From the NCBI GenBank assembly GCA_016183235.1, contig JACPFA010000026.1:33284-97283 (forward strand): DNA of 64,000 bases, given 5' to 3'. Positions 1,901-63,089 of this stretch are shown in pieces. Source of the stretch: Deltaproteobacteria bacterium. GTDB lineage: Bacteria; UBA10199; DSSB01; JACPFA01. Within the stretch, counting starts at the first letter, position 1, and every line of letters begins with the position of its first letter. The notes under the pieces are model-generated. The model was not told where the DNA came from, made no database searches, and saw only the letters and a list, made by a program, of their open reading frames with translations. A program made the translations under genes and the position numbers.

Positions 1901-1994
1901 CAAAAGAGATTGCTTAGCCATCGTGGATCCCGGATCCCCGGATCAAGTCCGGGGCAAGCTCGTCCGGGATGACGTGGGGTCGCAATGACAGAAG
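1901..1994. repeat. composite palindromic repeat (GGATCC-GC hairpin units plus a TCGCAATGACAG terminus)
   Basis: The sequence ...ggatcccggatccccggatcaagtccggggcaagctcgtccgggatgacgtggggtcgcaatgacag shares units with more than 10 other loci in the window. Confidence 0.8.
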
Positions 1995-1996
1995 TT

Positions 1997-3163
1997 TTAT
2001 TTTTTGGCGCGCATTTTTTGCACCTGTTGCAAGTTACCTTTAAAATCAGGATAAACTCGTGAGCCCTGTTTAAATTTTTCAAAGGCCGCTTTGGTTTTGC
2101 CTTCACTTAAATCAAGATGCCCTAGGTTGTAGAGGGCATAGGCCTCCCAGGCCGGGGCAGGTTTGTGTTGCAAAAACATTTCTAAAGATTTTCTCGCTTC
2201 TTGTGACCGTTTGAGTTTGAGCTGGCAATAGCCAATAAAGTAACGCGTCAAATAAATATCAGGATATTTTGTTTCCATCGCAGTGAACACTTGCAAGGCT
2301 TCTTGAAATTTGGCTAACCCAGTCAACATATTTCCTTTTAAAATTTGCGCCACCGCACTACCAGGATACGATTGCTCTAAGGTTTGGGCGATGCTCAAGC
2401 CTTTGGCGTAATTATGATATTCCCAATACACGAAAATGATGCCTGCCATAGCTAGGGGTTTGCCCACGCCACCTTTTTCAATGGCCAAATTCATTTTGCG
2501 AATCCCTTCTTGGCGCTGGTCTTTAAAAAAGGGCAAAAACTTGAACTTTTGCGTATAAACACTGCGCCAAAATTCATACATCCCCAACCCAAACCACGGA
2601 TCAAAAAAGTTAGGATCTTTTTGCACGCTCATTTGTAAGGCCTGCTTAGTATCGCCAGCTAGGCTTAAGGCCTTGAAGAGTTGGTCGGCCCGGATGTAAT
2701 AAAATGCCATTACCCCGCTAGAAGCCCCAGTGAGATAAAGGTCCCATGCGCTAGCATTAGGATCTTTTAAAATGACATCGTTGATGCTTTTAATTTTTTC
2801 GGTGATGGGTTTTAAACTGGTGTCTAAGCGAAAATCAAAATTTTCAAACATCTTGGATTGCAAAATCGCCATTTGCCCAAAAAGCCCCAACGGCGACTTT
2901 GGATATTTGTTTTCTAGGTTGTGAAAATAAGCCTCGGCCTCGGCGTATTTTCGATTTAAAACTAAATCGCGCCCGGTAATGGCGTCTTGGATGATTTCAG
3001 GGGTGGCCCCTTGGGGGATATAAATTTCGGCCCTTGCTAATTGAGGAGGGAGAAATAAGAAAAATAAAAGGAAGATTGCTTCGCTTGCGCTCGCAATGAC
3101 ACCTATATTAAAAAGGGATCTCTTCATAAGAGAAGTTGTGATGGATTTTAGATTTCGCTGCAA
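1997..3163 (-). CDS. exported TPR-repeat protein
   Basis: 388-aa ORF with repeated TPR-like helical units and a hydrophobic N-terminus ending LARA/EIY. The likelier start is ATG 3127 (MKRSLF...). Codons 3070-3103 of the signal region match the repeat family (VIASASEAI). Confidence 0.7.
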   Translation of the reverse strand: MQRNLKSITTSLMKRSLFNIGVIASASEAIFLLFFLFLPPQLARAEIYIPQGATPEIIQDAITGRDLVLNRKYAEAEAYFHNLENKYPKSPLGLFGQMAILQSKMFENFDFRLDTSLKPITEKIKSINDVILKDPNASAWDLYLTGASSGVMAFYYIRADQLFKALSLAGDTKQALQMSVQKDPNFFDPWFGLGMYEFWRSVYTQKFKFLPFFKDQRQEGIRKMNLAIEKGGVGKPLAMAGIIFVYWEYHNYAKGLSIAQTLEQSYPGSAVAQILKGNMLTGLAKFQEALQVFTAMETKYPDIYLTRYFIGYCQLKLKRSQEARKSLEMFLQHKPAPAWEAYALYNLGHLDLSEGKTKAAFEKFKQGSRVYPDFKGNLQQVQKMRAKK

Positions 3164-3180
3164 GGTGTTTTTTTGGTAAG

Positions 3181-3215
3181 AAAAAAGGGTGCTGCGTTTT
3201 TGAGCCGCAGCACCC
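3181..3215 (-). terminator. intrinsic-terminator-like hairpin with no upstream gene on its strand
   Basis: The minus strand reads GGGTGCTGCG-GCTCAAAAA-CGCAGCACCC followed by TTTTTT: a 10-bp GC-rich stem, a 9-nt loop and a T6 tract. It lies 18 nt upstream of the TPR ORF. Confidence 0.5.
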
Positions 3216-3312
3216 TGCCTGGAAGGAAAGAGGAACTTTTAACTTGCTAAAAAATACTACAGCACTACTTATATAACTATTTTATGACTCGCAATATGAT
3301 CTTAATCAGGCC

Positions 3313-3936
3313 ATGAAACTCACCACGAAAATACTCAAAAAATTAGAGGCTATGTACCCTAGCTCCCATTGTGAATTGTACCATCAAAGCCCCTATCAAT
3401 TGTTAGTTGCCACCATTTTATCGGCCCAATGCACAGATAAACGGGTCAACATGGTAACTCCTGGGCTATTTAAAACCGCCCCCACCCCTAAGGCCATGTT
3501 AGAATTGAGGGAAAACCGCTTAATGGAAATGATCAAATCTTGCGGGTTTTACCGTACCAAGGCCAAAAATATCTTAAAAACCAGTCAGATCCTTTTAGAA
3601 AAATTTGGGGGGGAGGTACCACGCACCCAAGAAGAATTAATTCAATTACCAAGTGTGGGGCGAAAAACTGCCAATGTTGTACTTTACAATGCCTACGGGA
3701 TTGCCGCTATCGCGGTAGACACTCATGTCTTTCGAGTCTCTCAACGCCTAGGGTTGGCCAAGGGCAAGACCCCCGACCAAATTGAACAGCAACTCATGAA
3801 GGTGTTTGCCAAGCAAGATTGGGGCAAGGCCCATCATTTGCTTATTTTTCACGGTCGTTACCATTGCAGCGCACGCCGCCCCAAATGCGAAACTTGCCCC
3901 CTAACCGCTGAATGCCAGTATTATCAAACGCTATAA
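3313..3936 (+). CDS. nth: endonuclease III (DNA glycosylase/AP lyase)
   Basis: 207 aa with an HhH-GPD core (LPSVGRKTANVVL, VDTHVFRVSQRLGL) and the C-terminal 4Fe-4S Cys cluster C-x6-C-x2-C-x5-C (CSARRPKCETCPLTAEC). Confidence 0.92.
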   Translation: MKLTTKILKKLEAMYPSSHCELYHQSPYQLLVATILSAQCTDKRVNMVTPGLFKTAPTPKAMLELRENRLMEMIKSCGFYRTKAKNILKTSQILLEKFGGEVPRTQEELIQLPSVGRKTANVVLYNAYGIAAIAVDTHVFRVSQRLGLAKGKTPDQIEQQLMKVFAKQDWGKAHHLLIFHGRYHCSARRPKCETCPLTAECQYYQTL

Positions 3937-4347
3937 TTTGTAAATATTGTAGGTACCCATGGCCATGGCAATATCTTTCCCCTTATGCCGATAAACATGG
4001 GCTTCGGTAACGGCATGGGATTTACCACGGTATTTAACCTTCGCATCGCAATAGATAATTTCGTTTAATTTGACGGTTGAGATATAATTAATTTTAAATT
4101 CGATCGTTGAGCAACGCTCCCCTGCCTTTAGCCCGCTAAACAAACAAGCCCCCATAGAAAAATCAACAAAGGTAGAAATAACCCCACCATGAACCATCCC
4201 CGCAGGGCTGATATGCTTTGACTCGATTTTAAGGGAAGTCTTGGCAAAGTTTTCCTTGGCCTCAACAATTTCATAACCTACCAACTCGCCAAAATTATCT
4301 GGATGGGAGAATACCGCCGCGACCAACTGTCGATAATTTTTCACCAT
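3931..4347 (-). CDS. hotdog-fold thioesterase (PaaI/4HBT type)
   Basis: 138 aa with the motif PAGMVHGGVISTFVDFSMG typical of PaaI-family thioesterases. It converges on nth with a 6-nt overlap. Confidence 0.7.
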   Translation of the reverse strand: MVKNYRQLVAAVFSHPDNFGELVGYEIVEAKENFAKTSLKIESKHISPAGMVHGGVISTFVDFSMGACLFSGLKAGERCSTIEFKINYISTVKLNEIIYCDAKVKYRGKSHAVTEAHVYRHKGKDIAMAMGTYNIYKL

Positions 4348-4408: not shown

Positions 4409-4665
4409 TAAAAAGTTTTAGTGAAGAGGGCTAAGGGGTTGAGCTAGAATCCGCACCCGTAAAGCCTGCTCGGCTCAAAAAATTATTTATTTTTAATTGA
4501 ATTAGAGTATTCCTTCGTCATCCTCTAATTTCGTCATCCTCTAATTCAAAAAAATAATATAATTTTTTGAACCTCCGGAGCCTGTCCTGAGGCTTTGCGA
4601 AGGAGCTTTACTCCTGCTACAGGTTCTCAACATACCCCCTTAGGCCACTTCAGGAAGACTTTTTA
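4409..4665. repeat. F-type long hairpin element, copy 1
   Basis: The termini AAAAAGTTTTAGTGAAG...CTTCAGGAAGACTTTTT are inverted repeats. The interior holds smaller palindromes and a tandem tcgtcatcctctaatt x2. The termini match the element at 62609-62825. Confidence 0.7.
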
Positions 4666-4690
4666 TATCTCTGCAAATATTTGAGAAGAA

Positions 4691-4931
4691 GTCTTTTCGA
4701 GGTAGGGAGAGGCCAAGGGAGAGCCTTTTACCAGGAGGGCGGCCTATGATAGTTTCTGTCATTGCGAACTTAAGCGGGTGAAGCAATCTCTTCTGCCTAA
4801 GCGATGGGATTGCCACGCTCGCTATCATGGGTCCCCGCCTTCGCGGGGATGACACCGCTCGCAATGACAGAGGCCCTCATAGGCCGACCGGGCGCGGGCT
4901 CTCCATTGGCCTCTCCCTACCTCGAAAAGAC
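4691..4931. repeat. three-level nested palindrome (outer stem, then A-type element, then GC hairpin)
   Basis: The outer arms gtcttttcgaggtagggagaggccaagggagagcc / ggctctccattggcctctccctacctcgaaaagac enclose ggcctatga/tcataggcc. These enclose the ctgtcattgcga...tcgcaatgacag element (4756-4870), which in turn encloses atcatgggtccccgccttcgcggggatgacac (4824-4855). Confidence 0.85.
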
Positions 4932-5031: not shown

Positions 5032-6690
5032 CTAGTTGGCCCTGATAACTACCCCCGATGCGGCGGCTCCACTCGGCCCTGATATAGCCACCTCGCTACC
5101 AGCGGATGAAACCTGAGTCCCGGTCATTTCAATGAAGAGACAGCTGGGTGAGTTCACACTACCTGACGTCGAAGACCCTGAGTAACTCGTCACCGCCGGG
5201 CCACTGAGCACCGTACCCCGATTATCATTTTGGCTACCGCGCAAATCGATCCCAGAAAAATCATAATTATTGTCACTCGACAGGCCAAGCCCGTCTAAAT
5301 AAACCGCTGAACAAAAATCTCTTAACAAATCTTGAAAACCTTCCCCCGTAACATCGGCAATATTATCGGTGCCGGTGTTGGCCCCGTTGATCAGCCCGCT
5401 CAACACCGCATCACCCGTGCTCACCCCACTGATATTGCCGTTGTTGGCCTGTTCATACAAATATCGTAAAAAGAGATAAGACCCACCCCGCTGCGTCAAA
5501 CTCGTGCCGCCGGTGAAGGCCACACTATTGATAGAATCTAAATACAAACTCACCCGTGAGGGGTTTTCTTCACTGACGTTCGCAAAACTATAGCTCGACC
5601 CCGACATATCCATATCTTCAGCAAAGTGGCTCATGGCTTCATTCAGCCAGCTAGCTTCCGAAGAATGCCCGTCAAAGAAGACCCGTTGGTTAAAATTGAT
5701 CAAATGCTGAAACTCGTGGGGCATGACCATGGGGCCAATGTTAGAGAGATAAAAACTCTTACTTAACGAAATCCCACTACAATAAAGATCGCCGCTGGGA
5801 TTGGGTGAAGCAATATAAATGATCGACCGCTCATTCGAGGCAGCAATTTGACTATCATCATATTGGTCGCCCCCATAAAAATAACCGGTGACAAAGCCGC
5901 CCCCACTGGCCCCCAAACAATTGACCACAGGCGACATGGCCACGGTAAACCGACACTCGCTGGCATGGTCCCAGTCGCCAAACACACTTTTTTCAGAGGC
6001 GATTTTATTGTCAAAAGCGGTAAATAATTCATCTAATTCAGCATCGCTGATGATGGAGCTGGTCACGAGTGAATCAACCGCAAATACTGCATTACTGGTG
6101 ACCTTCTTCACGGTTAAACTGCGGGTTGCAGTGCTGGAACCGCTGAGGCTGGTGAAAATTTTGATCGAAATGCTAGAATCGATCGAGGGCCCAGCACCAC
6201 AGTTGGTAACCGTTGGGTCAATCCCAACGGCAAAAGAGGCATCCCCTTGATTTTGGCTTGTGGTCACGGCGGCAATGATTTCTTCGCGATTGCGCAAGGT
6301 TTCGTGAAAGCTAGGGGTTAAATCGGGATTGGCATCTTCAAGGGTAGAAGCTGTGGCATCGGCCTCATGCAGAGAAAACGCCATGTCTTGTTCAAGAGAC
6401 GTATCGGCGCTGGTGGCGCCACTTAAGGTCCAGGAGAGGCTACCGGCATTGACATCGGCATTACTCAAACCAAAAACAAAAACCTCGCCCCCCGACAGGG
6501 CCCCAAACGTAACCGTGGCTTGATTAGAACTACCCAGATTAAGCACGACGACTTGACCCAGAGAGAAGCCTCCCCCCAAATTGTTATTGACGACCTCTCC
6601 CGAACCGCTCCCACAAGAAAGCCCAAACCAGGAAGAACAAACTGCCAAAATGAACCAGAAGCTAAAACGCTTCCTAAACCCCACAACCAT
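5032..6690 (-). CDS. secreted or lipoprotein zinc-metalloprotease candidate (HExxH)
   Basis: 552 aa with a signal or lipoprotein-like N-terminus (FWFILAVCSSWFGLSCGSG), a Ser/Gly/Thr-rich body and the motif MVMPHEFQHLINF (HExxH). Family is not assigned; an M30/hyicolysin-like guess is unverified. Confidence 0.6.
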   Translation of the reverse strand: MVVGFRKRFSFWFILAVCSSWFGLSCGSGSGEVVNNNLGGGFSLGQVVVLNLGSSNQATVTFGALSGGEVFVFGLSNADVNAGSLSWTLSGATSADTSLEQDMAFSLHEADATASTLEDANPDLTPSFHETLRNREEIIAAVTTSQNQGDASFAVGIDPTVTNCGAGPSIDSSISIKIFTSLSGSSTATRSLTVKKVTSNAVFAVDSLVTSSIISDAELDELFTAFDNKIASEKSVFGDWDHASECRFTVAMSPVVNCLGASGGGFVTGYFYGGDQYDDSQIAASNERSIIYIASPNPSGDLYCSGISLSKSFYLSNIGPMVMPHEFQHLINFNQRVFFDGHSSEASWLNEAMSHFAEDMDMSGSSYSFANVSEENPSRVSLYLDSINSVAFTGGTSLTQRGGSYLFLRYLYEQANNGNISGVSTGDAVLSGLINGANTGTDNIADVTGEGFQDLLRDFCSAVYLDGLGLSSDNNYDFSGIDLRGSQNDNRGTVLSGPAVTSYSGSSTSGSVNSPSCLFIEMTGTQVSSAGSEVAISGPSGAAASGVVIRAN

Positions 6691-6962
6691 AGAAAGCCCC
6701 TATCCCTTATTTGGTTTCGAGCTCCACGCCCCAGTGAGTTAGTTTGCAAGCTTCATACCCAAAGTTAAGACCTAATGAATTATTTTTTATTGAATAATTT
6801 CAAATAGATAGGATCGTCAATTTTGATGACGGAGGAAGACTGTGCAAGGTCATGGGTTAAAAAAAACCCATTTTATTGGGTTAGGCTTATCAAACACGAT
6901 GATTTTAAACAGGTTTTTATTTTAGTAGAATCTTACAAAAGTGGGGCAAAAAAGACTCTCTT

Positions 6963-7077
6963 CTGTCATTGCGAACCCAGCAGGGTGAAGCAATCTCTTC
7001 TGTTTAAGCGGTGAGATTGCCACGCTCGCTATCATGGGTCCCCGCCTTCGCGGGGATGACACCGCTCGCAATGACAG
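6963..7077. repeat. A-type composite palindromic element with a GC hairpin at its apex
   Basis: Near-identical to 4756-4870 (ctgtcattgcgaaccc...gattgccacgctcgct-atcatgggtccccgccttcgcggggatgacac-cgctcgcaatgacag). It ends 2 nt from the xseA stop codon. Confidence 0.9.
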
Positions 7078-7079
7078 AG

Positions 7080-8303
7080 TCACAATGACTTCACCATGGC
7101 ACTTATTTCCCCCTCCCCCAGCAATATTTGAAGCCCATCCCCCAGTTGCACGGCCGTGGCCTCACGAACCAAGACTTTTGACCCATCTTCTAACCACCGA
7201 TAGGTCAAACTATAGCCCCGTTGCAACACCGCCAAAGGCGAAACCAAGTGAATTTGCTCCGACAGGCTACGGAGATGCTGTTGGTGGGTTTTTAAAAAAT
7301 GCTCAATGGCACGATGCAAGCGAGCACTCCATTCATCGACCCTTAAGTTTAATTCTTCTAAACGCCGCGCCGGGTGTTTTAACCGTTGCACCAGGTGAGC
7401 CACCTTTTCTCGGTTCCAATGCAGCCACGCCTCCACCCCCCGTTGCAAACGGCTTTCGATGGCTTTTGCTTGTAAACGCAGTTCGGCTAAGTTGGGGGAA
7501 ATGAGCTCCGCTGCAGCACTGGGGGTGGGGGCCCTCAGGTCAGCCACAAAATCGGCAATGGTAAAATCGGTCTCATGCCCCACGGCGCTCACCACCGGAA
7601 TTTTAGAACGGGCAATGGCTTGAGCCACGATTTCAGTGTTAAACGCCCACAGATCTTCCAGCGACCCACCCCCGCGCCCCACAATCATCACTTCGGCTAA
7701 GCCATGTTCATTGATAAGGTCAATCGCCGCTGCAATTTCAGGCGCCGCTTTTTCCCCCTGCACATTCACCGGCACTAAAAAGAGATGCAGGCGTGGGTCA
7801 CGCCGGCTTAAAACATTAATAATATCTCGAATAACCGCACCCGTGGGGCTGGTCACCACACCAACATGCTTGGGGAATTTAGGCAAAGGCCGCTTGCGTT
7901 CTGCCGCAAAGAGCCCGGCCGCGGCCAATTTGGTTTTTAACTGTTCAAAGGCTAGCTGCAAGGCACCTAGGCCTTGTGGCTCGATGGATTCTACAACCAA
8001 TTGATATTTGCCCTGCGGTTCATAAAGAGAAATGCGGCCCAAACACAACATGGCCAAGCCATCTTCGAGTTTAAATTTCAACTGGCGATTGGCCCCCCGA
8101 AACATGACCACTGGCAAATGCGCACGTTCATCTTTGAGGGAAAAATAATAATGCCCACTGGAATGGGGACGAAAATTACTAATTTCGCCCGCCACCCACA
8201 CATGGGAAAAATTGCGTTCTAAGATTTTTTTTAATTCGCCAGTAAGTTCGGTGACGGTGTAAATATGCCGCTCTTCCGGAAGAGCGGAAAGTTCTAATTG
8301 CAT
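7080..8303 (-). CDS. xseA: exodeoxyribonuclease VII large subunit
   Basis: 407 aa. The N-terminal OB-fold segment (VWVAGEISNFRPHSSGHYYFSLKD), the catalytic core (VGRGGGSLEDLWAFN, GHETDFTIADFVAD) and the C-terminal coiled coil are typical of XseA. Confidence 0.92.
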   Translation of the reverse strand: MQLELSALPEERHIYTVTELTGELKKILERNFSHVWVAGEISNFRPHSSGHYYFSLKDERAHLPVVMFRGANRQLKFKLEDGLAMLCLGRISLYEPQGKYQLVVESIEPQGLGALQLAFEQLKTKLAAAGLFAAERKRPLPKFPKHVGVVTSPTGAVIRDIINVLSRRDPRLHLFLVPVNVQGEKAAPEIAAAIDLINEHGLAEVMIVGRGGGSLEDLWAFNTEIVAQAIARSKIPVVSAVGHETDFTIADFVADLRAPTPSAAAELISPNLAELRLQAKAIESRLQRGVEAWLHWNREKVAHLVQRLKHPARRLEELNLRVDEWSARLHRAIEHFLKTHQQHLRSLSEQIHLVSPLAVLQRGYSLTYRWLEDGSKVLVREATAVQLGDGLQILLGEGEISAMVKSL

Positions 8304-8346: not shown

Positions 8347-8490
8347 GTGTCATTGAGAAGGAGCGTCTGTCATTGCGAGGCCTGTGTGGGCGGCCTTCTG
8401 TCATTGCGAACCCAGCGGGGTGAAGCAATCTCTTCTGCCTAAGCGGTGGGATTGCCACGCTCGCCAACGGGGCTCGCTCGCAATGACAGA
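8347..8490. repeat. cluster of A-type palindromic elements (short-apex variant)
   Basis: Three gtcattg(c/a)ga units. The 8396-8490 copy has the apex aacgggg where other copies carry a 32-nt hairpin. It supplies the last ~15 codons and the stop of the 8439..9965 ORF. Confidence 0.85.
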
Positions 8491-9965
8491 AGTACCCCAA
8501 TCGGCAGCAACAAACTCAACAACCCCAAATTAAGCCCTTGGCTACTATGTGCCGGGCTCAAACTCATTGTGCATTTCAAAAAGGGTTCGTCTGCTTTGGG
8601 CTCAACCCCATCATCAACTGCGGGGTCTCCCTGCCCTTCGGCAATACCAGGGTCTATCATCGGGGCAGGCGCAGGCGGGGCCTCACCCGGCGTCATATCA
8701 CAGGCATTACCCGCGGCATCTTGGTCATAATCGAGTTGATCGGGGTTTGCCACATTGACGCAATTGTCTGCGTCATCTTTAACCCCGTCGCCGTCTAAAT
8801 CATCGGGCACTTTACTAAAATCTTGATCACAGGCATCGCCCAAACCATCGGCATCTGAATCGATTTGTTCGATATTCGGCTCTAACGGGCAATTATCGAT
8901 TTCATTGGCAAAGCTGTCGCCGTCTTCATCAGCTGGTTTGTAATCTGGGTCGCAAACATTGCCTAAACCATTCTTGTTGCCATCGGCTTGATCGGCATTG
9001 GGCTCCATGGGGCAATTGTCGACCCCATTGGGAATGCCATCACCATCGTCATCTTTTGACGCACTGGCAGGCGGTTCTGACGCATCATCGCTCGCCCCAC
9101 CATTATTATCTGCATTGCCGTTGTTAGCCCCACCGTTATTTGCAGCATCTGCTGCATCCGCAATCAAACCACCATAACCCCAGGCTTCATCCCTGGCTTC
9201 AACCACGGGGTCGATCGGTACTCCATAATCGACCACCACAATCGTGGTATAGCCTTCTGCATCAGCAGCTTCTTCTTCAATCACCGGTTCTTCTTCATCA
9301 CTTGGGGGATCAAAACTTGCTTCATCGTTGATTGCACCTTCATCTTCATCGGGAGGTGGTGGGGGGGGAGGTGGTGGTGGTTCTTGCGGCAATTTCCCTT
9401 CGGAATTTAATTGAACCTTTTTTCCGGAGGCATCTTCAACCCATACGTTTTCAAACTTATTGCTGGGCATGGTACACAAGGCTTTCTTAATATCTTTAGC
9501 TTTCACCGTAAAATTTTTGAAGAGGCTATCGGTGATGTTGATATTAAAAACACACTGGCCTTCGGGTGGGTTGACGTTCAACCCATTGAGCACCACCGAT
9601 TGAGCCTTGGATCCATCAAAAATCAGATTCTTGCCATCACCATTGAGATCATTCTGAACTTCCTGACCATAGTCATTATAAGACACAGGCCCCACCTCTA
9701 TGTTCAAACTTAAAATTGGAATGGGAATATTAAAAGATTTACCAGCCGCAAAATCGATTCTTTCCCGGCATTCTCGAGGTTGGCCATTGGCCCCATTAAA
9801 AACATTGATTTTTCGGCATAAGGATATGACCTTGCCAGGATCGCAAGTTTTGGTGCTCACCACCGAGGCATCGTTGGCATCGGTGCAAAAATCTTCTGCC
9901 TGGGCGGCCTGGGCCAGGAATAAATGAAGCAGCACGGCCCCCAAGATACCCACACCCCTTTTCAT
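8439..9965 (-). CDS. secreted thrombospondin type-3 repeat (Ca-binding) protein with a C-terminal Cys + TM tag
   Basis: The likely start is ATG 9965 (MKRGVGILGAVLLHLFLAQAAQA, a signal peptide), in an ATGA overlap with the upstream gene. It has an 11-Pro run, an acidic linker and three DNCPxxxNxxQxDxDxDGxGDxCD repeats. The C-terminus reads KCTMSLSP...LLSLLLPIGVLLSL. Confidence 0.8.
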   Translation of the reverse strand: MKRGVGILGAVLLHLFLAQAAQAEDFCTDANDASVVSTKTCDPGKVISLCRKINVFNGANGQPRECRERIDFAAGKSFNIPIPILSLNIEVGPVSYNDYGQEVQNDLNGDGKNLIFDGSKAQSVVLNGLNVNPPEGQCVFNINITDSLFKNFTVKAKDIKKALCTMPSNKFENVWVEDASGKKVQLNSEGKLPQEPPPPPPPPPPDEDEGAINDEASFDPPSDEEEPVIEEEAADAEGYTTIVVVDYGVPIDPVVEARDEAWGYGGLIADAADAANNGGANNGNADNNGGASDDASEPPASASKDDDGDGIPNGVDNCPMEPNADQADGNKNGLGNVCDPDYKPADEDGDSFANEIDNCPLEPNIEQIDSDADGLGDACDQDFSKVPDDLDGDGVKDDADNCVNVANPDQLDYDQDAAGNACDMTPGEAPPAPAPMIDPGIAEGQGDPAVDDGVEPKADEPFLKCTMSLSPAHSSQGLNLGLLSLLLPIGVLLSLRASPVGERGNPTA

Positions 9966-11173: not shown

Positions 11174-11299
11174 TCTAATAGGGTATCGGAGTTCCCCACA
11201 AAATGTTTCGGGGGAATTCTTTTATAATTGCACGAAACAAAATCACCATCCCCACGATAACCCTATTAGACAGGGTAGCACTTACGAAAGAGGTGCCCT

Positions 11300-12004
11300 G
11301 TGAACGATTGGTGGCAATACTTAAAAGGTGCTGAGCTACGTCTGAACTGGCTAATCGATCGCAGCCCCTTTGATACAAGCACGACGAATGTTTTTTCGAA
11401 CACCCATGAAATGAAAGATAGTAGCAAGCCTTCGGGTTTCGGCGTTGGTTATCTTCACAGTGTGGTGGGTAATCGCGATTTAATGGTGGGTGGTATGTTA
11501 GATTTTAATTGGTCCCACCCTCTGCTTAAGAACATTTATCTTGATGATGATGAGGATGGTGATGGTAAACCCGACTTTTGGAAAGCAAGCGAGGTTGAAG
11601 AATTTGTTTGGACGATCAAAGCCCAAGCCCTTTGGAATATCCCAGGAACCGTTGACCAATTTTATGAAGTAGGCCTGGCCGCATTCTTGGGCGGTGGAGA
11701 GCAAGCACTTACCTGTAATTGTGACACAGATGGCGGGATGGTACGTGAAGGGGTAGAATCCAGCGATTTCGTACTCCAAGCGGGAGCCGAATTGAGATTG
11801 CTTTGCGGTCTTTGGTTTATAGCTGTGGGGTTGGATCTTGTCTCTAAACCTATTTTTAATCGAGCAAATGCCGTTCTTGGGCACCCTAGCCAAAAAGTTG
11901 GCTATAATAATAATGGCGATAACCCTCCCTATCGAGTCACAACGGGAATCGACGTTATGGCCCTCTTTGGATTGGGTAAAGATGTTTATGATGCCCTTAA
12001 GTAA
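11300..12004 (+). CDS. hypothetical protein (MNDWW family, short paralog)
   Basis: 234 aa with a GTG start after AAAGAGG. By eye it is ~70% identical to the first ~230 aa of the next gene. An alternating hydrophobic pattern suggests beta-rich structure. No signal peptide is seen. Confidence 0.65.
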   Translation: MNDWWQYLKGAELRLNWLIDRSPFDTSTTNVFSNTHEMKDSSKPSGFGVGYLHSVVGNRDLMVGGMLDFNWSHPLLKNIYLDDDEDGDGKPDFWKASEVEEFVWTIKAQALWNIPGTVDQFYEVGLAAFLGGGEQALTCNCDTDGGMVREGVESSDFVLQAGAELRLLCGLWFIAVGLDLVSKPIFNRANAVLGHPSQKVGYNNNGDNPPYRVTTGIDVMALFGLGKDVYDALK

Positions 12005-12095
12005 AGCTCGCCCATAATTCACGAAACAAAATCACCACCCCAACGATAACCCTAGTAGACAGGGTGAGGGGGCTTTTAAAAAAGAGGTTTTATTT

Positions 12096-13937
12096 ATGAA
12101 TGATTGGTGGAAAGGTTTTGAAGCACGTTTAAATTGGCAAGTTCACCGTAGCGACTTTGATACCAGCGATACGGGGGCTTTTTCGAACACCCATGTAATG
12201 GAGGATGGTGCCAAACCGTCAGGTTTCGGCATTGGTTATCTTCACAGTGTGGTGGGTAATCGCGATTTAATGCTGGGTGGTATGTTAGATTTTAATTGGT
12301 CCCACCCTTTGCTCATGGCCATTAATGATGATGATGGCAACCTTTGGAAAACAAGCGAACTTGAAGAATTTGTTTGGACCATCCAAGGCCAAATGCTTTG
12401 GAACATCACTGGCACTGTTGATAAATGGTATGAAATAGGCTTAGCAGCCTTTATAGCGGGTGGACAACAAGATCTTACCTGTAATTGCGACACGGGGGGT
12501 GGCAATTTACGTAAAGGCTTAGACTCCAGTAGTTTCGTACTCCAAACCGGATTAGAGCTTAGATTACTTCGTGGTCTTTTGTTTGTAAACGTAGGTTGGG
12601 ATGTGATTTCTGGACCCGGTTATAATCGAGAAGATGCCATTGAAGGCGCTCCCAGCCAAGGAATCGATTATAATAATAATGGTGATGATTCCCCAGTTCG
12701 AGTCAAAACAGGGATCGATTTTGGAGCCCTCGCTGGTTTGGGTAAAGATGTTTATGATGCCGCTAGTGGGATTAATGCACGCTATGAGGCAGATGACCGA
12801 AACCACGCTATTGTCCAGGTAAAAGATGCCCTTAGAAGGGTGAAAGATCAAATTGCAGAAGGGAACGGGTTAGTCGCATCTAATGTGAGCGGGGCAGAGG
12901 GCAAAGCTAATGGGGCAAGAGCCGATCTCTCAAGTGCTCAAGGAATCGCCAATTCAAACAATTTAGGCGAAACCGATTATCAAGACAGTGAGATTAATTT
13001 AGTAGCTATTGAAAGAGATCTCGCCACGCTTGACACCGCTATTGCTGCGGCCAAAGCCCGCGCAACTGCCGCTACTCCACGAACACCGTTAGACTTAAAG
13101 GGTGCGGATAATACTAGTGGAAGTACCGAACTAGGTCAGCTTGGTGTGGTAAAAAAAAAGTTTGAAGGTGACAGTGGCTACTTAGCCTTAATCACAGAAG
13201 ATACTTCCGTAGCTGCACGCCAAGTTTCCCTGGCTAGTGGGGGTGACACAACCCTAGCCAACACTCACCTCCCCATTGCTCGCGCTGCCCTAGAAAGCGC
13301 CCAACGAAGATATAGCGACGCTCTAGCTTACGCCAAAGAGGCCAACGACGGCGTCACCCAGTATTATTCAAGCAACGCCGCATACACCACCCTACGAGAT
13401 GCAATCCTCACTCACACCCGCGCCGCCCACGGTAATTTAAGCCGAGCCATTAACGAATACAATACTGCCATTACAGCCTATAATCGCCAGCCCGGCGTAA
13501 CCGCGATTGCAACGCTCAGCTCCCCCTCCCCCGAAGCCCCTCCCGCAGCCGCTGCTGCACGCACAGTAGCACCTCGTCGCGCTGAACCATCCAGACCCAC
13601 AGATTATAAAAGGGTTATCACTGGCCTACTCGACGCCGCAGATAAAAAAATTACCGACGCCAGGACCGCGCTAGAAAAAGATCCTAAAAGAGCCAAACAA
13701 CTCGCCCAGCAAGCCAAAGGTAATGCCACCCGAGCAGGTACCATTGCTAACAAACAAGGAATCACTGACTTTGATGCCCGGATCAAGACTGCTGGGTCTA
13801 CGGCCGTTGGAATCATTAACACCGCCAACGAAAAAATTGCCGTTGCGGCTGCTGCTGCCAAAACAAAGACTGCTGCTCCGGCTCAACCCGCCACCAACCC
13901 CCCAGCTGAACCCGAACCAGAACGCTCAGTGGAATAA
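12096..13937 (+). CDS. hypothetical protein (MNDWW family, long paralog with an Ala-rich helical C-terminal extension)
   Basis: 613 aa with an ATG start after AAGAGG. The N-terminal 230 aa are paralogous to 11300..12004. The C-terminal ~380 aa are Ala/Thr/Lys-rich and predicted helical by composition. Confidence 0.7.
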   Translation: MNDWWKGFEARLNWQVHRSDFDTSDTGAFSNTHVMEDGAKPSGFGIGYLHSVVGNRDLMLGGMLDFNWSHPLLMAINDDDGNLWKTSELEEFVWTIQGQMLWNITGTVDKWYEIGLAAFIAGGQQDLTCNCDTGGGNLRKGLDSSSFVLQTGLELRLLRGLLFVNVGWDVISGPGYNREDAIEGAPSQGIDYNNNGDDSPVRVKTGIDFGALAGLGKDVYDAASGINARYEADDRNHAIVQVKDALRRVKDQIAEGNGLVASNVSGAEGKANGARADLSSAQGIANSNNLGETDYQDSEINLVAIERDLATLDTAIAAAKARATAATPRTPLDLKGADNTSGSTELGQLGVVKKKFEGDSGYLALITEDTSVAARQVSLASGGDTTLANTHLPIARAALESAQRRYSDALAYAKEANDGVTQYYSSNAAYTTLRDAILTHTRAAHGNLSRAINEYNTAITAYNRQPGVTAIATLSSPSPEAPPAAAAARTVAPRRAEPSRPTDYKRVITGLLDAADKKITDARTALEKDPKRAKQLAQQAKGNATRAGTIANKQGITDFDARIKTAGSTAVGIINTANEKIAVAAAAAKTKTAAPAQPATNPPAEPEPERSVE

Positions 13938-13961
13938 TAATAAAAACAAGCAATCCGAAAT

Positions 13962-14045
13962 GGAAGATTCTTTACCATCATGGGTCCCCGCCGGAGTTTA
14001 CCCCTGCGTAGGCAGGGGCAGGGATGACATGGTTCAGAATGACAG
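13962..14045. repeat. GC-hairpin repeat with an inner insert
   Basis: ggaagattc...atcatgggtccccgccggagtttacccctgcgtaggcaggggcagggatgacatgg...aatgacag has a near-copy at 18670-18753. Confidence 0.85.
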
Positions 14046-54041: not shown

Positions 54042-54473
54042 TTACTTACTAGTGCAGTAATCCCTCAGTCTTAGGGGCTTAGCTTTCAGAAACCCTTTGT
54101 GCGAGAGCGACGAGTCATGAGCGCTTAAAAAACATATGGTTTGTAGAAGCCTGTCCTGAGCCTTAGCGAAGGATCTCCTACGAACAAGGAGATCCCTCGT
54201 AAAACCTCGGGACAAGCTTCTAAACAAACCAAGAGTGCAAGCATCGGCTAAAATTTTAATTTGATCTTCTGCCACCTCTAAAACCCCACCCTCAACATCA
54301 AACTGCGTCATAGTTGAACCTTGACGCAAGGTCAAAACCCCTACACCCAAGCCTGACACCATGGTGGTATGGCCCGGCAATATCTCAAATTCGCCCAGTA
54401 ACCCCGGCGCTACGATGCTATCGTAATCACCTGATAAGATTTTTGCCCCGGGGGTTACAAATTCTATGTGCAT
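54042..54473 (-). CDS. atpC: ATP synthase F1 epsilon subunit whose C-terminal domain is replaced by repeat-derived sequence
   Basis: The start is ATG 54473 (MHIEFVTPGAKIL...). Residues 1-78 form a normal epsilon beta-sandwich (...VLEVAEDQIKILADA). Residues ~80-143 are read through a C-type repeat (54146-54220) and unrelated sequence. Confidence 0.8.
   Translation of the reverse strand: MHIEFVTPGAKILSGDYDSIVAPGLLGEFEILPGHTTMVSGLGVGVLTLRQGSTMTQFDVEGGVLEVAEDQIKILADACTLGLFRSLSRGFTRDLLVRRRSFAKAQDRLLQTICFLSAHDSSLSHKGFLKAKPLRLRDYCTSK
54146..54220. repeat. C-type palindromic repeat module inside the atpC ORF
   Basis: gaagcctgtcctgagccttagcgaaggatctcctacgaacaaggagatccctcgtaaaacctcgggacaagcttc. A close copy lies at ~28985-29058, and related pieces at 4570-4620 and 62725-62785. 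Confidence 0.85.
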
Positions 54474-54489
54474 AATAAATTCTTCCATG

Positions 54490-54532
54490 CGAGATTGCCA
54501 CGCTCGCCGACGAGGCTCGCTCGCAATGACAA
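54490..54532. repeat. A-type repeat half-element (short-apex variant) between atpD and atpC
   Basis: gagattgccacgctcgccgacgaggctcgctcgcaatgacaat. Confidence 0.8.
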
Positions 54533-54534
54533 TA

Positions 54535-56869
<2,335 letters not shown>

Positions 56870-56902: not shown

Positions 56903-57028
56903 GGAGGCCTCGAAAAAGGGCCCAGATGCAAGGTGCCTGCAAAATCGCGCCCGGGGCGTATGTGCAAATACGTGAGGATCGCGATTTTGCAGGCAACGCC
57001 GCAGATGGGTCGTTTTTAGAGGCCTCCT
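56903..57028. repeat. D-type structured palindromic element, copy 2 (between atpA and atpG)
   Basis: Termini GGAGGCCTCGAAAAA / TTTTTAGAGGCCTCC and a perfect 15-bp internal stem (56935-56949 with 56980-56994). It is homologous to 17967-18119 and ends 2 nt from the atpA stop. Confidence 0.85.
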
Positions 57029-60181: not shown

Positions 60182-60631
60182 CTAAAATTCGCGGCGGGTA
60201 TAATCGGTAGGTGCAGGCGAGGTCAATTCAAAGACTTCGGCATTATTTTCGGGTGTAGGAGCGGCATAATGTTCAGGGGCTGTCTTCCCCATACTACAAT
60301 GACCTTCAAACAAGGCCCCCTCACCTACCACTAAGGCGGGCGACAAAATATCTCCATACACTTTGGCGTGTTCTAACATCTCAATTTTTTGCTTAGCCCT
60401 AATGCTCCCCAAAACCGTACCGGTAATAATTGCGGTGCCTACATCAATCGTAGCGCGTACCTCAGCGCCCTCTCCTATCACCAACACACCGTCTGAAAAA
60501 ATCTCCCCTTGAAATTTGCCATTGATTTGCACGGTGCCTTCAAAGGTTAATTTGCCTTCAAATTCTGCGTCACGCTCTAGCACGGTGGTAGATTCGGATT
60601 CTAACATTTTTAAGTTTCGTTCCCTAGCCAT
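60182..60631 (-). CDS. bactofilin
   Basis: 149 aa with the DUF583 beta-helix pattern (FEGKLTFEGTVQINGKFQGEIFSDGVLVIGEGAEVRATIDVGTAIITGTVLGSI...). Confidence 0.9.
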   Translation of the reverse strand: MARERNLKMLESESTTVLERDAEFEGKLTFEGTVQINGKFQGEIFSDGVLVIGEGAEVRATIDVGTAIITGTVLGSIRAKQKIEMLEHAKVYGDILSPALVVGEGALFEGHCSMGKTAPEHYAAPTPENNAEVFELTSPAPTDYTRREF

Positions 60632-60652
60632 GATCGGCCTCCTTATTATTCA

Positions 60653-60710
60653 TTTGTCATTGCGATCCACGTCATCCCGGGCCTGACCCGGGATCCACGA
60701 TGACGCAATC
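60653..60710. repeat. A-terminus plus GC-hairpin repeat unit
   Basis: tttgtcattgcgatccacgtcatcccgggcctgacccgggatccacgatgacgcaatc. Confidence 0.85.
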
Positions 60711-60722
60711 TTTATTCTTTTT

Positions 60723-61601
60723 TCATCCAATAACTGCGTTATAAATTCGATCTAAATCCTCATGCGTATAGTAATCAATCAACACCTTGCCTTTTTTCCC
60801 AGAAGGTTTGATTTTTACTTTAGTACCCAAAATCTTCATCATTTCATTTTCAATAAATTTTATTTGCGGATCTTCTATCTTGGCCACTGCAACTTTACGC
60901 AACTGCAGGCCGGTGCGCAGGTCTCGGATTAAGTTTTCTACTTCTCTAACGGATAATTGGTCTTTTATGATCTGATTTTTCACTTTAATCTTAAGCGCGT
61001 CATCGTCTAAGGCCAAAAGCGCTCGGGCATGCCCCATGCTTAAACGATTTTCAATAATGTCGCCTCGGATTTCTTCAGGCAATCCCAACAATCGTATGGC
61101 ATTGGCAATCGTCGATCGATCTTTGCCCACACGCTCGGCCAGTTGATCTTGCGTGTAATCATAACGTTCTAATAAATTTTTATAAGCCAAGGCTTCTTCA
61201 ATGGGATTTAAATCCTGCCGCTGAATATTCTCGATTAAGGCAATCTCCATCACCTCATCGTCTTCACAATCTAAAATGACAACCGGGACTTTATCGAGAT
61301 TGGCTAGCTTACTCGCCCTTAGCCTGCGCTCGCCCGCAACCAATTCGTATTTTCCACCTCCGGGCATTGCACGCACCAACAAGGGTTCAATGACACCCTT
61401 TTCACGGATGGAGAGAGCCAATTCTTCTAAACCTTTTTTCTCAAAAAGTTTGCGCGGCTGATCTTTGCTGGGAATAATATCATCAATCGGACATTCCAAA
61501 TATTTTGACACACCCTCTTCTGATATTTCTGGCGCACTTTTCGACAAAAGCATGCCGGGCAATAATGAAGCCAACCCTTTTCCTAATGCACGTTGATTCA
61601 C
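60723..61601 (-). CDS. parB: chromosome partitioning protein ParB
   Basis: 292 aa with the ParB box LVAGERRLRASKLA, an HTH region and a C-terminal dimerisation region. Confidence 0.93.
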   Translation of the reverse strand: MNQRALGKGLASLLPGMLLSKSAPEISEEGVSKYLECPIDDIIPSKDQPRKLFEKKGLEELALSIREKGVIEPLLVRAMPGGGKYELVAGERRLRASKLANLDKVPVVILDCEDDEVMEIALIENIQRQDLNPIEEALAYKNLLERYDYTQDQLAERVGKDRSTIANAIRLLGLPEEIRGDIIENRLSMGHARALLALDDDALKIKVKNQIIKDQLSVREVENLIRDLRTGLQLRKVAVAKIEDPQIKFIENEMMKILGTKVKIKPSGKKGKVLIDYYTHEDLDRIYNAVIG

Positions 61602-61653
61602 GCGAAAACCCTCCTTATAATTTAAATGATCATGCGCCTTTTATAAGGCTTGC

Positions 61654-62466
61654 TCATAATAAAACTTCGCCCTGAAACTGCCCCTCTTGAACTATATTTT
61701 GTACGTTTTTTATACCAACCAATTCTCGAGTCAAATCAAGATAACTTTGTGCCCCCTTAGAACGTACATCATAATTAATGATCGACTTACCATGTGATGG
61801 GCTCTCCCCCAACTTCACATTTCTTGGAATCACCGTTTGAAATACTTTTTCTCCAAAAAAATTGCGGATCTCTTCGGCCACTTGTCTGGCAAGATTATTT
61901 CTTGCGTCAAACATGGTTAAGATGATTCCACCAATTTGTAATTTTGGATTTAAATGGGTCTTTATTAATTCGATGGTGCGCGTCAATTCACTCAAACCTT
62001 CCAAGGCAAAATATTCACATTGCACAGGGATCAGCACTGCATCACAGGCCGTAAGCGCATTGACCGTCAACAAATTTAAGGAAGGAGGACAATCAATGAG
62101 AATAAAATCATAATCTTCTTCTAAATTTTTAAGAGCACTTTTTAATTTTGATTCTCGGGCAAACACCGACACCAACTCTAGCTCTGCCCCCACCAGCTGG
62201 GTGTTGGCGGGCAGCAGGTCTAAATATTCGAGATCGGTTGACACCACAGCCGCTTCCACCGCCACTTCATTAATCAACACTTCATAAATACTTTGCGTGA
62301 TTTCTTGTTTCACAAAACCCAAGCCGCTAGTGGAATTGCCTTGGGGATCTAAATCCACCAACAGAGTTTTGCGTTCGGCTGCCGCCAGGCAAGACGCCAC
62401 ATTGATGGCAGTGGTAGTTTTACCAACTCCGCCTTTTTGATTAGTGATGGCGAAAATTTTTGCCAT
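61654..62466 (-). CDS. parA: chromosome partitioning ATPase ParA/Soj
   Basis: 270 aa with the deviant Walker A NQKGGVGKTTTAINV and Walker B FILIDCPPS. Confidence 0.95.
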   Translation of the reverse strand: MAKIFAITNQKGGVGKTTTAINVASCLAAAERKTLLVDLDPQGNSTSGLGFVKQEITQSIYEVLINEVAVEAAVVSTDLEYLDLLPANTQLVGAELELVSVFARESKLKSALKNLEEDYDFILIDCPPSLNLLTVNALTACDAVLIPVQCEYFALEGLSELTRTIELIKTHLNPKLQIGGIILTMFDARNNLARQVAEEIRNFFGEKVFQTVIPRNVKLGESPSHGKSIINYDVRSKGAQSYLDLTRELVGIKNVQNIVQEGQFQGEVLL

Positions 62467-62581
62467 TTAATTTAAAATAAACCTATTTAATTGGATTTAC
62501 GTTGGATTGAGATACACACCTTTTATCGTAATCCAAAATTTTTAGCAACAAAAATATACATGTAATATAATGTATGTCATC

Positions 62582-62597
62582 GGTTGCACGTGAAACG
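62582..62597. promoter_or_regulatory. degenerate parS-like site
   Basis: GGTTGCACGTGAAACG matches the parS consensus TGTTTCACGTGAAACA at 13 of 16 positions. Confidence 0.35.
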
Positions 62598-62608
62598 CAA
62601 CTCGCTCA

Positions 62609-62825
62609 CCTAAAAAGTTTTACTGAAGTCGGCAGAGGCTTCCAGGGGTCCGTGTCGCCTGGGGGTTACGGCCCCCAGGCGCACTCAAAGTCTCAGCTTT
62701 CACGGCTATATAGCCATAGAGGTGAAAACTGGAGTTTACCCTGAGCACTTCGCCAAGACTCAGTGTAAACTCCGCGAAGGGACAAACCCCTTCCAGCCTC
62801 AGCCAACTTCAGTAAAACTTTTTAT
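62609..62825. repeat. F-type long hairpin element, copy 2
   Basis: Termini AAAAAGTTTTACTGAAGT / ACTTCAGTAAAACTTTTT. The interior holds several perfect small hairpins, e.g. GCCTGGGGG-ttacgg-CCCCCAGGC. It is followed by the 20-bp unit TTTATAT(T/C)TCTGCAAATATT x2 (62821-62860). Confidence 0.8.
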
Positions 62826-62870
62826 ATTTCTGCAAATATTTTTATATCTCTGCAAATATTTGTATGGATA

Positions 62871-63089
62871 TAAAAAGCGAGGGATGCGACTTTGCGGTTG
62901 AGTTAGCTTTTTCGACCCATCGCGGAATCGCCGGGGCCCCCAATGCGGGCTAGCCGGCATGGAAAGCCGAGGCCCGCCGCAGGCGGGAACGCGGAAGGCT
63001 TCCGTGCCGGCTAGCCCCATTAGGGTCGGCGATGGAGCGCCGGGTCGAAAAAGCTAACTCAACCGCAAAGTCGCATCCCTCGCTTTTTA
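62871..63089. repeat. E-type palindromic element, copy 2 (same core as 22907-23014, different outer stem)
   Basis: Outer arms taaaaagcgagggatgcgactttgcggttgagttagctttttcgaccc and their complement. The core 62917-63040 is about 94% identical to the reverse complement of the E1 core. Confidence 0.85.

Follow-up and report, generated by a model that had tools for sequence, protein, structure and literature searches.

The 64,000-nucleotide (nt) stretch analysed here, hereafter the window, belongs to a deltaproteobacterial genome (GenBank assembly GCA_016183235.1, contig JACPFA010000026.1, positions 33,284 to 97,283). Many of its intergenic gaps hold short palindromic repeats, a number of them packed inside one another, which raises the question of what these repeats are, how they came to be nested and whether they form a system of their own. 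An initial annotation, made from the letters of the sequence, had put forward, as a candidate for an undescribed system, a modular, palindromic family of miniature mobile elements inserted into hairpin loops or, alternatively, a structured regulatory family acting as DNA or RNA. Our answer is that small mobile DNA elements of several families, hairpin-forming and non-autonomous, have probably spread through the gaps, and that they are of the type represented by repetitive extragenic palindromic sequences (REPs), REP doublets forming hairpins (REPINs) and bacterial interspersed mosaic elements (BIMEs). As that annotation had it, the repeats behave as mobile DNA, being present or absent at orthologous sites and propagated as composite units. 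They are an unusually deeply nested form of a known class, for which no transposase is reported, and not an undescribed system.

Repeat families of the window

The core 9-mer GTCATTGCG has 10 forward and 14 reverse matches in the window, exactly the numbers first counted by eye, at a chance expectation of 0, and the 12-mer GTCATTGCGARC has 18 exact matches against 0.00 expected from 100 shuffles. The hairpin initially described as GGATCCC...GGGGATGAC is recovered in eight copies by the pattern ATCATGG[AG]TCCC and in ten by GTCATCCC[CGT]. A GTC followed by a stem that begins with A-T, with the complement no more than 130 nt away, occurs 26 times, compared with 3.5 ± 1.9 in Markov simulations, and a search for inverted repeats returned 41 pairs, with arms of 63, 50, 48, 39 and 35 nt among them. 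The counts far exceed the shuffled and simulated expectation. In all, 25 element blocks were mapped with a combined length of 2817 nt, or 33% of the ~8.4 kb of intergenic DNA; they occupy 21 of 42 gaps, including 16 of the 24 that measure at least 100 nt, shares and counts that rest on a rough gene model of our own making. The original figure of about 20 occupied gaps agrees with this census, but the wider statement that nearly every gap is filled does not, given the 33% share and a stretch between 37 and 54 kb in which no block was mapped.

Modules A and B, listed separately at the outset, both belong to a single element, here called U1 (the GTCATTGCGA module), which usually occurs with an inverted partner. 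Its full dimer consists of two inverted arms with their tags outward (the HH form) around a conserved spacer of ~20 nt, and reads TGTC-ATTGC-GA-GCCC-AGCA-GGGC-GAA-GCAAT-C ... G-ATTGC-CAC-GCCC-GTT-GGGC-TC-GCAAT-GACA. Each arm folds by itself into a hairpin, closed by a 5-bp stem (ATTGC/GCAAT) and continuing through an internal loop to a distal stem of 4 bp; the distal loops measure 3–4 nt, the interior enclosed by the closing stem 17–22 nt, and paired arms fold as a single hairpin of roughly 95 nt. The GGATCCC hairpin defines a second unit, H, which reads TGTC-ATCCCCGC-GAAG-GCGGGGAT-CCA or CGTC-ATCCCGGG-CCTGA-CCCGGGAT-CCA. Common to H and U1, the two most frequent units (U1 above all), are an unpaired 5' (T/C)GTC tag, a stem opening with A-T and then T-A, and a short C-rich tail. 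The further recurrent modules that had been suspected exist as well, in the form of module C (TGTCCTGAGG...CCTCGGGACA; copies at 28987–29052 and 54150–54216, half a copy at 4581–4606), the larger palindromes E, F, G1 and K, and a classical miniature inverted-repeat transposable element (MITE).

Direct repeats flanking U1, H, C, E, F or G1 were seen neither at the window sites nor in the comparison with relatives nor in the phage alignment described below. The U1 dimers of the window are preceded by TTC and followed by GA(A/G), a pattern that fails in other genomes, and no consensus target can be defined. Some 1.5 Mb of loci fetched from elsewhere contained nothing matching C, G1, E, F, K or the MITE, which look lineage-specific as far as tested. 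In a plasmid collection C, G1 and the U1 of the window were unmatched, and a U1 dimer from Bradyrhizobium matched only eight records (Novosphingobium, Methylosinus, Methylocystis and Halomonas), in unannotated stretches. Rfam 15 gave no match at gathering thresholds, either for the window or for 16 loci taken from other phyla, the sole match of a sensitive E-value scan of 28700–29300 was a chance-level small nucleolar RNA, and no intrinsic-terminator T-run was seen at the elements. Readings of the repeats as attC/integron arrays, CRISPR or riboswitches were ruled out by the inverted and nested arrangement, the absence of cas and integrase domains, the flanking housekeeping operons and the lack of an Rfam match. 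Neither a tRNA, a tmRNA nor the HIP1 octamer was found in the window.

Chimeric or collapsed reads might in principle have produced such a picture, and short-read unitigs do break at the elements: those in Logan that carry xseA end ~30 nt inside the flanking elements, and exact-protein look-ups gave only short, repeat-broken unitigs. Breaks at this depth are what true multi-copy repeats are expected to cause. Two ENA assemblies made independently from groundwater (SRR1658344 / ERZ978281 and ERZ28564302), which represent a close relative (L204 and L205), contain these families too, with H in the loop of a U1 arm among them, and the families recur in hundreds of unrelated genomes and viral contigs. 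Because the unitig breaks fit multi-copy repeats and independent assemblies hold the same families, we take the elements to be real and give an assembly artefact, which the initial annotation had named as a possible refutation, a practically negligible chance. The elements both break short-read assemblies and coincide with synteny breaks.

Nesting and turnover

Smaller units occupy the loops or exact centres of larger palindromes, at up to four levels. (Strand is given below for single arms and units; it was left unassigned for dimers, larger palindromes, the MITE, module C and clusters.) Single U1 arms display the simplest layers. The arm at 1906–1994 (GATTGC...TCGCAATGACA; minus strand) bears in its loop an H-type unit (1919–1974) that itself holds CCCCGGA-TCAAG-TCCGGGG, which makes three levels. 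At 13950–14047 (minus) a U1-type arm with the covarying closing stem ATTCT/AGAAT encloses H at 13976–14029, with GGAGTTTACCCCTGCGTAGGCAGGGG in the H loop, and the arm at 18670–18755 (minus) has H at 18685–18738 in its loop and a GGAGTTTACCCCTGCG hairpin in the loop of H. The arm at 60654–60712 (plus; TGTCATTGCGA...CGCAATC) contains the CGTC-tagged form of H with the CCTGA loop (60670–60703), an architecture that recurs in L204 at 6515–6575. A degenerate H remnant with the U1 tail GCTCGCAATGACA lies at 20152–20202 (minus), and a cluster of overlapping H-type units, including CGTC-ATCCCGGG-CTTGA-CCCCGGAT-CCA, at 31153–31252, between oppB and the real start of oppC. H is found almost always within the closing stem of a U1 arm (1906, 13950, 18670, 28887, 60654), mostly as a single copy, and its loop is enlarged by a nested hairpin in five copies (1919, 13976, 18685, 28905, 31161). 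Two H loops hold the mini-hairpin CCCCTGC-GNNG-GCAGGGG (13993–14020, 18702–18730), and the near-identical CCCCTGC-GAAA-GCAGGGG occurs in phages; it may be another very small, widely shared module.

Five U1 dimers can be aligned along one shared scaffold, with H at an identical position of the 3' arm in three of them. Directly 3' of xseA, the dimer at 6960–7079 has H at 7030–7061 in its 3' arm. The most elaborate of the H-bearing dimers fills the oppF-oppD gap (28887–29120) and holds a 24-nt hairpin in the loop of its H (28905–28960), module C (28987–29052) in its apical spacer and a duplicated head at 29100–29120. Two further dimers are 'empty'. One (8395–8492, together with an extra U1 head at 8366–8382) stands upstream of xseA and overlaps the stop codon of an ORF (open reading frame) of the TSP_3 type; the other (34418–34508) is centred within 26-nt U1-type arms that add a pair of heads to its left and a pair of tails to its right, so as to form concentric shells at 34378–34559. 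Since the five dimers share a scaffold with H at one position, and one of them carries added modules, the composites must have been formed stepwise and later copied whole.

The larger palindromes repeat this layout. E (4691–4931) has 35-nt arms that are 97% complementary, and its centre, at 4811, falls within 2 nt of the centre (4813) of the U1 dimer plus H that it contains (4754–4872; H at 4823–4854). The MITE (22859–23060) has terminal inverted repeats of 48 nt that are 88% complementary, and each of its flanks bears the 8-bp direct duplication CTTGATGC; K (22907–23013) lies in its middle, and its centre at 22959.5 compares with 22957.5 for its strongest internal inverted repeat (22930–22985). 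K is central also to an unrelated outer palindrome at 62871–63089, with 63-nt arms that are 92% complementary; K here spans 62918–63040 and has an extra GC hairpin at its apex, and the outer centre, 62980, compares with 62982 for the internal repeat (62947–63017). The F element at 4409–4682, after which comes TCTGCAAATATTT, has terminal inverted repeats of TAAAAAGTTTTA(G/C)TGAAG and includes the half copy of C. It can be aligned with a second copy at 62611–62841, which has inverted termini of 39 nt and counts GGAGTTTAC...GTAAACTCC among its internal hairpins, as well as with two copies in L204. G1 occurs at 17967–18119 and at 56903–57027, the former with an extra insert of 26 nt. Predicted single-strand folds reproduce the nested layout for the oppF-oppD dimer (z = -8.0), for E (-90.7 kcal/mol, z = -14.1) and for the arm at 1906 (z = -3.9), so that alignments, centred inserts and folds all bear out the modular nesting at apices reported at the outset.

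Why units sit in loops is a further question. The position itself holds up, in the window as in phages; the targeting of hairpin loops that had been read from it is a deduction, and survivorship would give the same picture. Insertion might be unaimed, and only units that land in a loop or centre would leave the outer palindrome foldable and copyable, so that nested forms survive and are re-amplified. Stand-alone copies outside larger palindromes do exist, as this explanation would have it. They comprise a canonical H at 33944–33975 (plus; TGTC-ATCCCCGC-GAAG-GCGGGGAT-CCA-TGATA), a CGTC-tagged H-type unit ending in GGGATCCATGATG at 17296–17328 (minus), within the first codons of ORF 17278–17943, and the module C at 54150–54216. 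Solitary U1 arms, all on the minus strand, are found at 3073–3101 (the minimal arm AGATTGCTTCGCTTGCGCTCGCAATGACA, of the 27–29 nt type common in other phyla), at 36255–36289 (the 5' end of ORF 34566–36290) and at 54491–54532. Composites with intact outer ends have also been re-copied. Against survivorship stand the centring of inner modules to within a few nucleotides (E, the MITE and 62871–63089), the recurrence of this arrangement at four levels of nesting and the fact that no unit was seen to interrupt a stem. By itself we consider survivorship possible, if somewhat doubtful; between it and loop-targeted insertion, which is plausible but unproven, the choice is roughly even.

Turnover was assessed against close relatives. 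Among 5.8 billion proteins the closest XseA (P0001, represented by L204 and L205) is 93% identical, and the next closest, labelled as belonging to metagenome-assembled genomes (MAGs) of Deltaproteobacteria, is 59% identical. The comparison of filled and empty sites that the initial annotation had called for could be made at three sites shared with the 93% relative, and it yielded one absence and two different fillings. On the 3' side of xseA the 120-nt dimer with H is missing from L204 and L205, and most of the remaining spacer aligns with scattered mismatches. On the 5' side L204 has, instead of the dimer, a half-dimer of a different subfamily. Downstream of a gene for a 550-residue protein the first 82 nt are identical in the window and L204, and both carry an E-F composite; the E arms differ with mutual compensation, the U1+H core is present only in the window, and the F core differs too. 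L204 holds the same families at other sites, among them a U1 arm with H in its loop, and has the subfamily of the H-bearing arm at 13950, there lacking the insert. The 59% relatives (GC 56–64%) have no such families in 41 kb, and none of these palindromes was found in L199, which has long atp gaps. The atpG relatives in JGI metagenomes, at best 55% identical, proved too distant for such a comparison. Because sites are filled in one and empty in another close relative, and composites recur whole, units and composites have been copied to new sites; they are copied and lost on a short time scale.

The synteny around xseA differs as well. In the 59% relatives (L206–L208) the order is TSP_3 gene, xseA, xseB and ispA, neighbours overlapping or standing close together; in the window xseA (7080–8303) is flanked by elements on both sides and not followed by xseB, and ispA (21234–22121) lies 13 kb away. 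The break coincides with the element-filled junctions.

Some of these exchanges invite an explanation without any enzyme, in which template switching during replication, or gene conversion between hairpins, swaps and extends cores in the manner of quasipalindrome events, apically and with no target duplication. U1 and H indeed lack target-site duplications, and cores are replaced instead of cleanly inserted, as in the alternation of CAACGGGGCT and H among U1 dimers and in the E and F cores at the orthologous site. The interior of one arm seems inverted between 8395 and 34418, terminal heads are tandemly duplicated (8366, 29100, 34378–34559), and no transposase is associated with the elements in the loci that we sampled, or with the related repeats of PMC3733652. 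Such a process leaves unexplained how units reach sites that have no related hairpin, for example 3' of xseA, and why, as the next section describes, the unpaired (T/C)GTC and the AT-first stem are kept in at least 20 phyla and in phages, with covariation confined to the remainder. We regard it as an improbable explanation of the whole, the weakest of the biological alternatives considered here.

Distribution, gene context and mechanism

With the pattern GATTGCYWCRC-N(0-30)-TCGCAATGACA, scanned in one genome per species, at least 120 genomic stretches were obtained. Among the matches listed, with phyla judged from record titles, at least 20 bacterial phyla are represented, including isolates of Bradyrhizobium, Hymenobacter, Nostoc, Calothrix and Chloroflexus, and no archaea; at least 120 viral contigs of IMG/VR contain the pattern as well. 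The partner arm, (T/C)GTCATTGCGAGGAGCGNAGCGACGWRGCAATC, is conserved even though the scan pattern did not constrain it. The closing stem covaries across loci (TTGC/GCAA 27, TTCT/AGAA 6, TCGC/GCGA 3, TTCC/GGAA 2, CCGC/GCGG 1), and the tags of long U1 arms, mainly from other genomes, read TGTC in 30 cases, CGTC in 14 and GGTC in 2, those of the window being TGTC. U1 arms of the window have C(T/C)C as their tail, and those of Alphaproteobacteria frequently have CCA(G). Canonical units of the form CGTC-ATTCCCGC-GNAG-GCGGGAAT-CCA co-occur in U1 loci of other genomes. Tag and stem geometry are thus conserved while the stems covary, and conservation of the tag and AT-first stem amid a covarying remainder points to sequence-specific recognition. 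The absence of the families from 41 kb of the 59% relatives, set against the wide distribution of U1 in phyla and viruses, fits a horizontal arrival followed by a burst.

In related tailed phages, with flanks of 80–92% nucleotide identity, a U1 unit of 28–34 nt is present or absent at the same place. In a first group (flanks 87–92% identical) the 28-nt unit TGTCATTGCGAGCGAAGCGAAGCAATCC is found in two genomes and missing from three (L331, L332, L336), and another genome, L334, has an extra copy of a neighbouring hairpin where the unit would stand. The mini-hairpin CCCCTGC-GAAA-GCAGGGG varies likewise: the hairpin downstream of the major-head gene has it in its loop in some genomes and lacks it in others (L331, L332). 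The U1 unit of this group lies between two hairpins, outside a loop, which favours survivorship over aimed insertion. A second group points the other way: here U1 sits exactly in the loop of a terminator hairpin, GCCAGG...CCTGGC, placed after the stop codon and next to the major-head gene on its 3' side, in 9 of 80 fetched phage loci, partly deleted in one genome and absent in others. The spacer after the major-head gene (L329–L408, ~200 nt past the gene) is a hot spot of interchangeable hairpins, its content varying at 80–92% flank identity among G/C-rich GGGGAGGGGG...CCCCCTCCCC, CCCCCTTTAGAAAAGGGGG, U1 units and stems rich in A/T. Chloroflexus has copies of the U1 arm, GATTGCTTCGCCGCC-NNN-GGCGGCTCGCAATGACA, arrayed head to tail, some ~50 nt and others 100–360 nt apart, unlike the inverted dimers elsewhere (L006 1371–1869, L075 1718–2272, L111 ~3463, L067 4851–4885; no Rfam match).

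Pfam searches of the major window ORFs of at least 100 residues (those at 43.7–47.6 kb were judged through the Pfam labels of the identical contig L001) showed housekeeping genes, toxin-antitoxin pairs and several unknowns, and no transposase, HUH or integrase domain, in agreement with the initial statement that no mobilising gene is visible. Elements lie inside operons, in the oppF-oppD, oppB-oppC, atpD-atpC and atpA-atpG gaps. The last, filled by the second G1 copy, measures 160 nt compared with a median of 24 nt in 76 relatives. One of the solitary U1 arms (54491) stands between atpD and the real start of atpC. The atpC ORF (54042–54617) encodes a normal N-terminal beta-sandwich domain (residues 49–126) and after ...ILADACTLG enters the stand-alone C module (TGTCCTGAGC...CCTCGGGACA), which its 3' end reads through; a recognisable C-terminal helical sequence is absent after the module in any frame, and the repeat may have truncated or rewritten the epsilon subunit. 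Units also lie within the extended starts of several ORFs, and spurious extensions occur at the atpC, oppC, TPR and TSP_3 genes. For annotators the practical consequence is that such elements create false ORF extensions as well as breaks in short-read assemblies.

This setting suggests that the elements might be mainly host-selected structural regulators, acting as RNA hairpins on polycistronic mRNA or as DNA that binds nucleoid proteins or gyrase, their abundance reflecting function. Many copies stand after or between genes of one operon, at all four opp and atp junctions. Outside the window, U1 is found between carA and carB or near carB in three genomes, at least two of them of unrelated lineages: a Planctomycetota MAG (L031, 3184–3215) and a Deltaproteobacteria MAG (L032, 5951–5977), both at the carA-carB junction, and a Desulfobacteraceae MAG (L095), ~80 nt from carB. 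It also lies just past the major-head gene in ~15 related phage fragments. Structure is conserved with covariation, and mRNA stabilisation and transcription termination are among the roles proposed for REPs in the literature (PMC3733652). Weighed against this, presence varies between close relatives at the same operon junctions, the atp junctions of the 76 relatives are short and free of such elements, and U1 dimers occur in both orientations on the transcribed strand (three versus two). Moreover, copies overlap ORF starts and ends, with the possible rewriting of the atpC C-terminus, and neither a terminator T-run nor an Rfam match accompanies them. A primarily regulatory origin is accordingly unlikely in our estimate, though a somewhat better candidate than template switching.

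Colonisation by mobile hairpin DNA, the explanation that we prefer, has several findings to contend with, which together weigh against it. The mobilising enzyme that it calls for was seen neither in the Pfam scans of the window nor near sampled copies elsewhere, and within 1.5–2 kb of U1, at 120 genomic and as many viral loci, no gene family was enriched that would be a mobiliser candidate. Among the genomic loci the largest cluster of neighbours spanned four (two-component systems, carAB and similar), the enriched clusters among the viral loci were portal, major-head and structural proteins of one phage group and not enzymes, and no RAYT was found in the window or beside the 240 sampled U1 copies. 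For U1 and H no target-site duplication and no precise empty-site junction was found, the flanks beside insertions being altered too. The tags show a weak strand bias (~21 on the minus strand and 12 on the plus strand), loop occupancy can be explained by survivorship, and the data for the host genome consist of the 64-kb window.

If the elements are mobile as we propose, copying would be done in trans by a sequence-specific enzyme encoded beyond the window. Much as RAYT/TnpA(REP) uses its GTAG guide, this enzyme would recognise the tag at the base of a hairpin folded from single-stranded DNA, and the single-stranded loops of existing hairpins would be its preferred, or the only tolerated, landing sites. 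Copies within the opp and atp operons probably act as RNA hairpins too, as a secondary effect. Occupancy of loops and centres over several levels narrows the mechanisms to action on folded single strands or selection for foldability. Far more tentatively, U1 could be a pan-bacterial, sequence-conserved hairpin element with units of ~28–34 nt, spreading between phyla, possibly on phages, and copied by a widespread activity, distinct from RAYT/IS200, that recognises (T/C)GTC and inserts into hairpin loops. We consider this a speculative and rather improbable extension. Were it true, the present lineage, with its recent burst and a relative at 93% XseA identity that has empty sites, would lend itself naturally to a search for the activity; in any event the element-rich genome and that relative offer a comparative handle on the responsible enzyme.

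Other features of the window are noted here for completeness. Its right end (60182–64000) carries mnmG (gidA), parA, parB and a bactofilin gene, followed by the atp operon, an order typical of an origin-proximal region; the parA-mnmG gap of 711 nt is packed with palindromes (F, and the inverted repeat with K), and the GC skew is negative over the entire window (cumulative -1.9). Toxin-antitoxin components are numerous (14070–14817, 22118–22558, 23344–23670, 26208–26525 and 45364–45789: Gp49/HTH, PIN, Phd, ParE and a second PIN), and a RuBisCO-large-like gene (43678–44973) and an AAA_14/DUF4143 ATPase are also encoded. ORF 18120–18596 contains the 16-mer CGGGCCGAATCACCTT three times at an exact period of 48 nt (18416–18527), resembling an in-frame tandem repeat; its product has a sub-threshold match to Pfam TetR_C_8 (20.4 bits, cutoff 26.1). 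Repeats found by self-BLAST at 11231–12392 span ORFs 11300–12004 and 12096–13937, which have no Pfam match, and fall outside the palindrome families; GTGGTGGGTAATC is shared by both ORFs, with its reverse complement at 15407, and the two look like diverged paralogues.

Relation to known systems

The closest known relatives are the CGTC-tagged REPs (PMC3733652; Di Nocera, De Gregorio & Rocco 2013, BMC Genomics 14:522), which comprise families CGTC-1 to CGTC-4 and include dRS3 of Neisseria and RPE-4 and RPE-6 of Rickettsia. As defined there, they have an unpaired CGTC tag, often TGTC, a stem of 8–9 bp that begins with A and T, a loop of 4–5 nt and a 3-nt tail that is mostly CCA; dimers are mainly HH with spacers of 20–100 bp, intragenic copies occur, some dimers lie within larger palindromes, and no dedicated transposase is reported. 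By this definition H meets every feature and is, on sequence grounds, a canonical REP of the CGTC class. It carries TGTC or CGTC, an AT-first stem of 8 bp (ATCCCCGC/GCGGGGAT or ATCCCGGG/CCCGGGAT), loops of GAAG, CTTGA or CCTGA, and a CCA tail after the copies at 33967, 60694, 31208, 18737 and 1973. U1 agrees with the definition in its tag, its tail, the AT-first rule for the stem and the HH form, all five of its full dimers having their tags outward and a spacer of ~20 nt, but its stem is split, with 5 bp at the base, and its interior of 17–22 nt exceeds the CGTC-REP loop. We therefore treat it as a putative variant of the CGTC-REPs and not as a canonical member. The window is also transposase-free, like these REPs, and the 240 sampled loci are flanked by housekeeping or phage structural genes. 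In contrast to the CGTC-REPs described there, units of the window act as both hosts and guests at up to four nested levels, and U1 extends to at least 20 phyla and to viral contigs, compared with the five phyla from which CGTC repeats were reported. Mosaic and nested organisation as such has a precedent in the mosaic intergenic regions of Neisseria cited in the same report. The U1 sequence does not occur in its supplementary text, although the element may be partly covered in Di Nocera et al. (2013). A later account of a CGTC-REP transposase was not found in the literature, and searches with core 10-mers returned primers only, those with repeat-encoded peptide strings nothing.

Among other classes, MITEs accommodate the element at 22859–23060, with its 48-nt terminal inverted repeats and 8-bp CTTGATGC duplication; U1, H and C lack a target duplication, and single mobile units of 28–34 nt are far below the usual size of a MITE. 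The small dispersed repeats (SDRs) of Nostoc punctiforme (Elhai et al. 2008) are reportedly tens of nucleotides long and mobile, have a conserved secondary structure and use their own copies, as well as other repeats, as insertion sites, so that nested arrays result. They are reported from a subgroup of cyanobacteria only, with one family dependent on HIP1; the window lacks HIP1.

The resemblance to REPINs and to the BIMEs of E. coli is the more general one, in that two inverted units with a conserved spacer form one long hairpin that is the copied unit, non-autonomous and intergenic, with the tag at its foot; the mosaic combination of modules is likewise that of the E. coli BIMEs. Unlike the REPIN/RAYT system, the units carry (T/C)GTC and not a GT[AG]G guide, and whereas REPIN sequences have been described as species-specific, that of U1 is conserved across phyla. 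The proposal of an undescribed system is thus not upheld, since H fits the published CGTC-REP definition, U1 is a cosmopolitan TGTC-tagged relative, and nesting and mosaics have precedents. What appears to go beyond the searchable literature is how widely U1 is distributed, together with the filled and empty hairpin loops. Elements of this class, or of a close variant, recur almost unchanged in sequence in at least 20 bacterial phyla and in numerous phage contigs, and close relatives differ by the gain and loss of units as small as 28–34 nt.

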